From: Candidatus Woesearchaeota archaeon
GTDB lineage: Archaea > Nanobdellota > Nanobdellia > Pacearchaeales > GW2011-AR1
DNA: 29,930 bases
Reading direction: 5' to 3'
NCBI GenBank assembly: GCA_964451595.1
Contig: CAYVIQ010000001.1
Location: 1 to 29,930, forward strand
This document shows positions 3,348 to 9,923 of this stretch, piece after piece. A program made the position numbers and the translations under genes. Each line of letters starts with the position of its first letter. The first letter of the stretch is position 1. The notes under the pieces are model-generated. The model saw nothing but the letters and a program-made list of their open reading frames with translations, was not told the DNA's origin and made no database searches.

Positions 3348-3929
3348 ATGGTAACAAAAAAGGCTACTCCGGCAAAGAAAAAGGAATCTTCTTATAAAAT
3401 TCAGAATATTGTGGCGACCGCTTCTCTGGGGAAACCTGTTCCTTTGACTAAACTTGCTCGAACTCAACCAAATACAGAATATAATCCTGAGACTTTTCCA
3501 GGACTTGTTTTAAGAATTAAAGAACCAAAATCTGCCGTTTTAGTTTTCTCTTCTGGAAATCTTGTTTGTACGGGAACTAAGTCTACTGCCCAAGTTAAAC
3601 AAGTTATAGAAGCTGTGATTAAACAATTAAAGAAGATAAATGTAAATATAACAACTGTCCCCAAAATAACTGTTCAGAATATTGTTGCTTCTGGAACTAT
3701 TGATCTGAAACTTAATTTGAATTTCCTTGCTTTGGAAATGGAGAATACAGAATATGAGCCTGAACAATTTCCGGGTTTGGTTTACAAGTTGATTGATCCT
3801 ACTGCTACTTTTTTATTGTTTAGTAATGGAAAACTTGTTTGTACTGGAACTAAGAACAGACAGCAACTTGAAGATTCTATGAAACAGCTTTTGAAGAATG
3901 TTAAGGATGCTTTGAAAAATTATAAATAA
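3348..3929 (+). CDS. tbp: TATA-box binding protein
   Basis: Two repeats: IQNIVAT..YNPETFPGLV..FSSGNLVCTG and VQNIVAS..YEPEQFPGLV..FSNGKLVCTG. Confidence 0.99.
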   Translation: MVTKKATPAKKKESSYKIQNIVATASLGKPVPLTKLARTQPNTEYNPETFPGLVLRIKEPKSAVLVFSSGNLVCTGTKSTAQVKQVIEAVIKQLKKINVNITTVPKITVQNIVASGTIDLKLNLNFLALEMENTEYEPEQFPGLVYKLIDPTATFLLFSNGKLVCTGTKNRQQLEDSMKQLLKNVKDALKNYK

Positions 3930-8991: not shown

Positions 8992-9657
8992 TTATTCTTT
9001 CTCCAAAATCTCACATTTGATTTTATTTTCTTCGCAAAGTTCTTTAAATTCTTTTGCATCTTCTTCCGAACCGATTATGCTTCCCCAGTGCATTGGTATC
9101 GCGAGAGTAGGTTTTATTAATTTTGCAGTTTCTGCTGCTTCTTCAGGATTCATTGTGAATCTTCCACCTACTGGTAAAAGGGCAATGAATTCTTTTCCAG
9201 GTTGTTTGTGACCTGTAAGTTTTTGCATTTCGGGAATTAGGTCTGTGTCCCCCGAGTGATAGATTATTGTATTATGCATTTTAATTAGATATCCTAACCA
9301 TCCTTCTTCTTTAGGATGAAAATGCTTGTCTATATTATATGCAGGAACTGTAGATATTTGAATGTCACCCAAATTTATTTCTTGCATTGGTTCTATGATC
9401 TCCATTTTTATTTGAGTATTGAATCTTGCGATTTTACTTTGACAATCAGCAGGCATTATTATCCTTGTTCCATCTTGGATAATTTTTTCCATATCTGCCA
9501 CACTGCAATGGTCATAGTGGCTGTGAGTAATTAAAATTAAATCCGCTTTAGGCAGATTTTCTCTTATTTTGTAAGGATCAATGTAAACAATTTTTGAGTT
9601 TTTTATTAGAAATCCTGAATGGCCGAGCCATTTTAATTCTATATTTCCTATGTTCAT
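8992..9657 (-). CDS. Metallo-beta-lactamase-fold hydrolase
   Basis: WLGHSGF, THSHYDH, YHSGDT, LPVGG..TM, IPMHW. Confidence 0.93.
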   Translation of the reverse strand: MNIGNIELKWLGHSGFLIKNSKIVYIDPYKIRENLPKADLILITHSHYDHCSVADMEKIIQDGTRIIMPADCQSKIARFNTQIKMEIIEPMQEINLGDIQISTVPAYNIDKHFHPKEEGWLGYLIKMHNTIIYHSGDTDLIPEMQKLTGHKQPGKEFIALLPVGGRFTMNPEEAAETAKLIKPTLAIPMHWGSIIGSEEDAKEFKELCEENKIKCEILEKE

Positions 9658-9733
9658 GTTTTCAAAAATTGTTTGTAGTTTTTAAGGATTTTGTAATAAT
9701 AATTCATAAAAAATAAAATTTGGATGAAACGAA

Positions 9734-9811
9734 CTATTCGTCGTCTTCACCAGACATGTCTTCTTCATCCATGTCTTCTTCTTCGTCTTCAAAGTCTTCA
9801 TCGTATGCCAT
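9734..9811 (-). CDS. 25-aa hyperacidic microprotein MAYDEDFEDEEEDMDEEDMSGEDDE (not in ORF track)
   Basis: GGAGGT SD (9819-9824) 7 nt upstream, TTTAAAAG box (9856-9863), downstream U-tract; 17 of 25 residues are D/E. Confidence 0.8.
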   Translation of the reverse strand: MAYDEDFEDEEEDMDEEDMSGEDDE

Positions 9812-9923
9812 ATAGAAAACCTCCAGTTTTAATTAAAAACTTGTTTTTTCAATTGCTTTTAAATATTACGTTACACTGAAAAATAGATAAAAACTAGAGA
9901 AAAATTTAAAAGGGATTATTTAA

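Follow-up and report, generated by a model that had tools for sequence, protein, structure and literature searches.

DSS1/Sem1 is a small acidic protein of eukaryotes that serves as a partner of BRCA2, the proteasome lid, and TREX-2. It is rich in Asp and Glu with interspersed aromatic residues, is disordered when free, binds basic grooves, and can mimic DNA. In the prothymosin-α/H1 system, an abundant disordered eukaryotic polyanion of ~110 aa, devoid of aromatic residues, relies on charge density rather than on a fold and competes basic proteins off nucleic acid. Acidic runs with an aromatic residue at or near the end also occur as tails of folded OB-fold or helicase proteins, such as the DDDIPF tip of SSB and the tails of T7 gp2.5 and gp4. 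T7 Ocr and ArdA are folded anti-restriction proteins that exceed 100 aa and are carried by phages or plasmids; their charges are precisely arranged, and their high density of Asp and Glu imitates the phosphate backbone (PMC3439906, PMC2731889). Finally, in mgtL-type leaders and other cases of intrinsic ribosome destabilization, short ORFs with acidic N-terminal residues destabilize the ribosome that is translating them (PMC9718836).

The micro-gene analyzed here lies in a 29,930-nt stretch of DNA from a Candidatus Woesearchaeota archaeon, hereafter called the window, between asnS and a gene for an MBL protein, and its predicted product is a free-standing polyanionic microprotein of 25 aa. The functionally nearest known proteins are DSS1/Sem1, prothymosin-α, and the acidic tails with a terminal aromatic residue of SSB and T7 gp2.5; no homology to them was found. 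The micro-peptides share with DSS1/Sem1 their small size, their richness in Asp and Glu, and their interspersed aromatic residues; however, DSS1/Sem1 is a eukaryotic protein of 70-90 aa with conserved Trp-containing motifs, whereas the micro-peptide is far more acidic, and there was no sequence match between them, the Pfam search of the micro-peptides being empty. We know of no PCI-domain or BRCA2 partners of DSS1/Sem1 in these archaea. A parallel to prothymosin-α and H1 is offered by a poly-Lys ORF that is also encoded in the genome of the micro-gene, a candidate partnership; prothymosin-α differs in its length, its eukaryotic origin, its lack of aromatic residues, and its lack of homology to the micro-peptide. 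Many micro-peptides resemble the SSB and T7 tails in being an acidic run that ends in F, Y, or W (..DDDEF, ..SDEDY, ..DDEW), but they would be free-standing, and the copy in the window ends in ..GEDDE, with no terminal aromatic residue. A high density of Asp and Glu is common to Ocr, ArdA, and the micro-peptide; in contrast to those two proteins, the micro-gene is chromosomal and sits in a core neighborhood. The micro-ORF and mgtL are both short and have an acidic N-terminus; mgtL, however, is part of the 5′ leader upstream of its target gene, whereas the micro-gene ends in a terminator of its own and is followed by a gene with a separate promoter, and its geometry relative to the neighbors varies among genera.

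By direct reading of the sequence, all of the elements that the original prediction had named were found on the minus strand (Table 1). Its description of a complete monocistronic expression unit held up, with promoter box, Shine-Dalgarno (SD) sequence, ORF, and T-run all present and a separate promoter for the MBL gene, and translation of the ORF confirmed that 17 of the 25 residues (68%) are Asp or Glu while none is Lys, Arg, or His, for a net charge of about −17. Acidic residues occupy seven of the ten positions that follow Met. Logan contigs of two DNA runs reproduced the micro-ORF. At window position 9761, the Logan contig of run X1 has G for T (plus strand), which changes codon 17 from GAA to GAC; this variant, seen in one of the two DNA runs, is a conservative E17D polymorphism inside the micro-ORF. 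Overlapping ORFs at 9720-9815 and 9724-9879 on the plus strand and at 9682-9801 on the minus strand were rejected as by-products of the GAN repeat that lack the arrangement of SD and promoter.

Table 1. Features of the micro-gene and its borders, in window coordinates
Feature	Position	Strand	Remarks
End of asnS	9924	-	Upstream of the micro-gene
T-runs and genus-conserved block (TTTATCTATTTTTnAGTGTAnCG..)	9893-9864	-	Directly 5′ of the TATA-like box; 20 genus loci compared, anchored on the ATG
TATA-like promoter box TTTAAAAG	9863-9856	-	Starts 52 nt before the ATG
Inferred 5′ UTR, ~22-26 nt	9835-9812	-	Transcription start inferred from the box-to-start spacing in leaderless genes
Shine-Dalgarno sequence GGAGGT	9824-9819	-	7 nt before the ATG
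ORF, 25 codons plus TAG, MAYDEDFEDEEEDMDEEDMSGEDDE	9811-9734	-	ATG at 9811; stop TAG at 9736-9734
T-run TTTT-A-TTTTTT (T4-A-T6)	9718-9708	-	Begins 16 nt past the stop; likely archaeal oligo-T terminator
MBL promoter box CTTAAAA	9686-9680	-	29 nt before the MBL ATG at 9657; marks the end of the micro-gene unit

The signals of the micro-gene were set against those of its genome, for which we surveyed an incomplete assembly of 581 kb in 107 contigs (~31% GC). A TATA-like box (TTTAAAA and variants) occurs at −30 to −26 in 63 of 284 long ORFs; since the box peaks at this position genome-wide, we take it to be the general promoter element, and most genes with their own promoter are leaderless in this genome. 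With its box at −52 and its SD, the micro-ORF would belong to a minority class of genes with a leader, the 5′ UTR being the one estimated in Table 1. Any SD-like 4-mer precedes only 38 of the 284 long ORFs, and GGAGG(T) followed by ATG marks only ~27 other plausible genes in the 581 kb; the genes with a full SD include FtsZ and two large surface proteins. The window holds nine copies of GGAGGT on its two strands, against 4.75 expected, and only those ahead of ftsZ (7850) and of the micro-ORF stand before a credible start codon, in agreement with the earlier statement that the window contains two perfect SDs; the other seven copies precede no credible start. The micro-ORF is also the only ORF of such acidity in the whole 581-kb assembly, and it was indeed missed by gene callers, as had been anticipated. 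At 3803 on the plus strand of contig C23 there is another short acidic ORF, 27 aa long (MDEFDEFDQKKFDDNLEEEIDGLGLDE), with 48% Asp and Glu and GAGGT ahead of it; its end, GLGLDE, is faintly reminiscent of ribosomal-stalk tails. Contig C26 (612-1076) encodes an Spt5/NusG protein whose acidic tail has a terminal Tyr (..ESEGDSDEEY), and another genome (L058) carries a hyperacidic micro-ORF in antisense orientation between spt5 and rpl11.

Relatives of the locus were found by searching with the neighboring MBL protein, and the loci were then oriented. In 20 of 22 loci of the genus, an ATG-started ORF of 25-38 aa with 50-73% Asp and Glu lies 50-180 nt upstream of MBL, and in 19 of the 22 GGAGG(T) stands 6-8 nt before the ATG; the remaining two loci have a longer acidic ORF, rich in Glu, Pro, and Ala, at the same place. 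Start codon, SD spacing, promoter, and terminator were kept in 19-20 of the 22 genus genomes, at an MBL protein identity of 70-80%. The typical genus peptide reads MPK(Y/L/H)xEEE.., with scattered F, Y, M, and L and often a terminal F or Y; in the subclade of the window (L001-L003) it starts with MA or MV and ends in ..DDE, and the window's copy is without the C-terminal aromatic residue seen in many relatives.

The DNA around the ORF was similarly conserved. When the genus loci were anchored on the ATG, the promoter box appeared as (G)ATTTAAAAAT in 19 of 20, and the 95 nt upstream were strongly conserved, as TTTATCTATTTTTnAGTGTAnCGATAGATTTAAAAAT, a gap of ~30 nt, and AAATTTGGAGGT. In most relatives, the block directly 5′ of the promoter box contains an ATCTAT..ATAGAT inverted repeat, the right half of which is degenerate in this genome. 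The leaders of relatives, in the genus and in other genera, have the common form (T/A)CTAAA(T)nGGAGG. On the 3′ side of the micro-ORF, T-runs, sometimes with a hairpin, are followed by a separately conserved MBL promoter; every genus locus has AATCTTTAAAAA at a distance of ~25-30 nt upstream of the MBL ATG. This spacing equals that of the leaderless class, and because the MBL gene has its own leaderless promoter the micro-gene unit is monocistronic. The absence of a conserved frame or SD from relatives had been named beforehand as the result that would speak against the gene; the frame, the SD, and the promoter are all kept, and this conservation, together with that of the start codon, excludes chance.

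Several other elements were observed at these loci. In many members of the genus (L011-L015, L018-L021, and L023), the stretch from the stop of the micro-ORF to the MBL promoter contains a conserved hairpin-like element (GGAGCTTC .. GAAGTTCC, then T-runs), which is absent from the window. Most members also encode a conserved, divergently transcribed protein of 126-134 aa, with a charged tail at the C-terminus and two CxxC pairs (MANSYVDALR..RCYMCEK..RAICSSCFF..), located between asnS and the micro-gene (L005, L006, L011, L013, L016-L018, L020, and L021, at ~700-1190). An obligatory partnership of the micro-peptide with this divergent 128-aa CxxC..CxxC protein was ruled out, the protein being absent from the assembly of this genome. 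Tiny Cys-rich ORFs adjoin the position of the acidic micro-ORF in L004 (~1380-1450) and L037 (1206-1298), with the sequences MCDKCGCKDKEKQGNCNNENCDCK and, preceded by an SD, MCEKCGDDECTGCGEDEKCEECEEKSEDSE. In two loci of family f4 (L024 and L027), a small zinc-ribbon ORF (..YRCESCGFKFQ..CPNC..) with an acidic C-terminus occupies the place upstream of MBL that the acidic micro-ORF has in this genus.

Comparison of the closest relatives indicated that the sequence of the peptide itself is under selection. One close pair (L013 and L015) has five synonymous and no non-synonymous codon differences, and another (L014 and L019) has four synonymous and two non-synonymous ones; the pooled nine against two, a small sample, give p ~1e-4 against an expectation of 25% synonymous changes, which points to purifying selection on the peptide in close relatives. 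Codon usage had the frame-specific bias of a protein-coding gene. In 71 micro-ORFs of the order, the share of GAC among the Asp codons was 41% and that of TAC among the Tyr codons was 53%, compared with 19% GAC (p = 5e-33) and 21% TAC in the genes that flank them; in the window's ORF, GAC serves for six of eight Asp codons, compared with a genome mean of 20%. The probable highly expressed genes of this genome lean toward GAC and TAC in the same way, less strongly. The rare full SD, the canonical promoter, and the preference for GAC and TAC thus bear out the earlier suggestion of high expression as far as such signals predict it, and they fit efficient translation of the micro-ORF. A known RNA family or structured small RNA was ruled out, as Rfam gave no significant match for the micro-gene and its RNA fold was ordinary compared with shuffled sequences (minimum-free-energy z = −1.33). 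The available RNA runs matched neither the micro-gene nor 6 kb of neighboring housekeeping genes, the organism itself being absent from them. We conclude that the micro-gene is very probably a real, independently transcribed protein gene with its own promoter, SD leader, and oligo-T terminator.

Outside the genus, similar genes could be recognized only through their DNA. A profile HMM of 19 genus peptides matched in 2 of 201 genomes and missed the window itself, and is thus too insensitive for such a composition; instead we used the DNA pattern GGAGG-N4-9-ATG-N0-30-(GAN)5, which has a single match locus in the genome of the window, the micro-ORF, and recovers 14 of 23 MBL loci. In a sample of 401 genomes of the order, this pattern matched in 87, compared with ~14 for the reversed control, and in a phylum-level draw of 401 genomes, all of which are listed in the same class, it matched in 104, compared with ~25. 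The strict pattern was found in 44 of 153 genera. Most of the places fetched were SD-led micro-ORFs: 51 of 70 within the order (16-73 aa, 54-90% Asp and Glu) and 37 of 40 in other orders, where many end in W or Y. A TTTAAAA(A) box lies 40-52 nt upstream in nearly all of the 51 loci from other genera, and a run of at least five Ts follows within 60 nt of the stop in 80 of 88 related micro-ORFs. Altogether there are 108 examples of 15-73 aa, with a median length of 27-31 aa and a median net charge of −14 to −18; 99 of them have one or more aromatic residues, commonly close to the N-terminus or in the final position (W, Y, or F). Charge and composition are conserved, with frequent exchange of Asp and Glu, while length and exact sequence drift; aromatic and Met residues are retained, and the N-terminal motifs MPK.. 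and MPEDEY.. recur. The sharing of leaders and of N-termini such as MPEDEY.. across genera and types of locus suggests one homologous cassette that has been moved and lost.

Searches for described relatives of the family were negative. There was no match in Pfam for four members and none in NCBIfam for 10, apart from a non-significant DUF3134 (E = 7.6) across these scans; one member gave nothing in a PDB sequence search or in a homology search of 5.8 billion clusters, 10 members looked up exactly in a collection of 15 billion proteins were all absent, and literature searches returned no description of such an archaeal hyperacidic micro-gene family. Judged from these genomes, the micro-gene is strongly retained in its own genus, with a patchy distribution outside it; for example, only 5 of 40 genera have a hyperacidic ORF in the 3.5 kb that follow aspS, and its presence varies even within a genus, which indicates that the gene is dispensable in many lineages. 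This patchiness, the fast turnover of length and sequence, and the empty protein databases are what one would expect if the ORF were non-functional, a GA-rich low-complexity open stretch carried between asnS and MBL. Such an explanation was already disfavoured and is hardly credible, given the signals kept in the genus, the excess of synonymous changes, the frame-specific codon bias, and the recurrence of the SD-led pattern far above its reversed control. Two related arrangements were noted in other genomes. In L077, L080, and L082 (genera g34 and g22), GyrA has an SD-led hyperacidic N-terminal extension (MTEDEEDESFEEESEEEEEENEEG..) that resembles the micro-protein fused to the enzyme and is absent from the GyrA of this genome (C25). 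In L122 (G047, family f4), the SD of the polyacidic micro-ORF (MTYEDDEEEESDDDNEDSNEDD) follows directly on the end of a 9-codon polybasic ORF (MAKKKKGKKK), which is itself SD-led.

We then compared the gene neighborhoods; the neighbors within the order were mapped to the genome of the window and identified by reading signature motifs by eye rather than by profile search. Besides the loci of the genus itself, micro-genes lie directly downstream of aspS in 10 loci and of asnS in five, upstream of ileS in three, divergent from lysS in two, beside serS in one or two, and convergent with gltX in five, with aspS in one, and with cysS in one; one more lies between a gatB/E-like gene and aspS. Loci of genus g17 are among those in which the micro-gene adjoins aspS. 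The other neighbors in the order include aEF2, eS19, uS10, Spt5/L11, DnaG/aEF1A, Dph2, and Cbf5. Either aspS or asnS adjoins about half of the sampled copies, and genes for aminoacyl-tRNA synthetases (aaRSs) adjoin ~29 of the 51 loci; when independent types of locus were counted, 6 of ~21 touched an aaRS gene, against ~7% expected (p ~0.002). Among 37 loci outside the order, aaRS genes made up only 3 of 73 immediate neighbors, with no enrichment (p = 0.46). A universal aaRS neighborhood was therefore rejected, as it was not reproduced outside the order and as few genera have the gene downstream of aspS; within the order, a link to aaRS genes is suggestive, not established. The 37 outside loci also include ScpA (a condensin subunit) as a neighbor in three cases, CorA in two, and methyltransferases in five. 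The proposal that the peptide regulates the neighboring DHH/MBL nucleases found no support, since MBL has its own conserved leaderless promoter and the position next to MBL is kept mainly within one genus and related blocks, the cassette elsewhere adjoining aspS, asnS, gltX, ileS, lysS, serS, cysS, aEF2, or still other genes. A functional link to MBL or DHH as a general rule was rejected on the same grounds.

The surroundings of the micro-gene raise the question of whether it acts through its translation. In such a device, translating the N-terminal run of Asp and Glu would be what matters and the peptide a by-product; ribosome destabilization sensitive to Mg2+ or to the supply of Asp- and Glu-tRNA, as in mgtL, would be read out as read-through or termination at the T-run just past the stop, or as an altered fate of the mRNA. 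Acidic runs of this kind abort translation in Escherichia coli, yeast, and human systems, and Mg2+ relieves the effect (PMC9718836). The acidic start of the micro-peptide, a chain of 25 aa that is shorter than the ribosomal exit tunnel, and the closeness of the T-run to the stop codon would suit this mechanism, as would neighbors in the order that supply Asp- and Glu-tRNA (aspS, asnS, gltX, and gatB/E-like) and the CorA genes that adjoin two loci outside it. However, the micro-ORF does not lie in the 5′ leader of a regulated gene, its own T-run and the MBL promoter at −29 intervening, and there is no architecture of alternative hairpins, in keeping with the ordinary fold. Nor is there a consistent target in cis: the arrangements (downstream, upstream, convergent, and divergent) are so varied that they favor a product that acts in trans over a leader that acts in cis. 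The Asp/Glu-rich peptides are often found beside aspS, asnS, and gltX, and the same peptides also stand beside ileS, lysS, serS, and cysS with no enrichment in Ile, Lys, Ser, or Cys. Finally, non-acidic residues are conserved, and the selection seen in close pairs acts on the whole peptide. We consider a device of this type, the chief rival of a peptide that acts in trans, rather unlikely. The more specific idea of a CorA leader was rejected, as CorA adjoins no more than two loci, and one or both of these are convergent.

The best reading of the data, to which we assign a probability of roughly 40%, is that a polyanionic peptide is made from the micro-gene in abundance and acts in trans, as a ligand of basic proteins that bind nucleic acids. 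The peptide would act without a globular fold, its dense negative charge and few aromatic and Met residues allowing it to bind basic nucleic-acid-binding surfaces and to compete for them, so that it would serve as an electrostatic chaperone or a nucleic-acid mimic; of the functions suggested originally, nucleic-acid mimic and basic-protein chaperone stay preferred on this best reading. At 25 aa and with so high a share of Asp and Glu, its composition is that of a disordered polyanion and incompatible with a hydrophobic core. A single-sequence AF2 model of a 43-aa homologue gave one helix and a floppy tail with no tertiary contacts (pTM 0.41). The tendency within the order to adjoin aaRS genes makes proteins that handle tRNA or act in translation candidate targets, and very basic chromatin-like proteins may be targets as well. 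Among the latter, the same genome offers as candidate partners a protein with a weak histone-fold match (19.9 bits; contig C19, 1575-1739) and a 66-aa poly-Lys/Ala/Val ORF with an SD; no Alba was found in the incomplete assembly. This Lys/Ala/Val-repeat ORF (MALKKKAAKKPVKKK..KKKAVKKKAV..), on the plus strand of contig C29 from 5065 with GAGGTGA ahead of it, may encode a polycationic H1-like protein. N-terminal runs of Asp and Glu abort translation in bacteria and eukaryotes (PMC9718836), and a high output of the full peptide can therefore not be assumed. A detached ribosomal-stalk tail was also considered and rejected, as the peptide has no GLxxLF-type motif; no canonical aP1 was found in this assembly, which is incomplete.

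Two further roles for a trans-acting product were weighed against binding to basic proteins in general. The peptide might have a bulk physicochemical role that needs no partner, as a polyanionic counter-ion or buffer for Mg2+, K+, or polyamines or as a Hero-like solubility shield, and its net charge, its strong expression signals, the conservation of composition more than of sequence, and the origin of the organism from salt-marsh metagenomes are what such a role would predict. We regard it as quite unlikely, for a short peptide contributes little charge relative to rRNA, a pure charge buffer has no need of conserved aromatic and Met residues or of the MPK.. and MPEDEY.. motifs, relatives come from groundwater, freshwater, and other habitats according to their sequence records, and the gene is patchy among close relatives of similar lifestyle. 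The peptides might, more specifically, be tRNA or nucleic-acid mimics that dock on the tRNA-binding surfaces of aaRSs and tune tRNA charging or hand-over. The docking would be expected especially on the OB-fold anticodon-binding domains of the class IIb enzymes AspRS, AsnRS, and LysRS, an emphasis that follows from the frequency with which micro-genes adjoin their genes; we hold this narrower version to be very doubtful.

Ultra-small DPANN archaea have ~600 genes, and a conserved gene with a promoter and a full SD is therefore unlikely to be idle in them. Genes of this type escape both gene callers and homology searches, yet they recur in at least a quarter of the genomes of one archaeal class. 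Should the peptide be made, it would rank as an extreme among the sequences that bacterial and eukaryotic ribosomes translate poorly, and these archaea would either put up with such sequences or make use of the defect. Chemical synthesis of so short a peptide is feasible, and binding and enzyme assays are thus directly possible. If it docks on aaRSs as a mimic, it would represent a trans-acting layer of translational regulation not described in archaea and may belong to a broader group of hyperacidic archaeal microproteins linked to the translation machinery. If it binds a synthetase or a chromatin-like protein, it would be a prokaryotic counterpart of the acidic disordered regulators of the DSS1 and prothymosin-α type.
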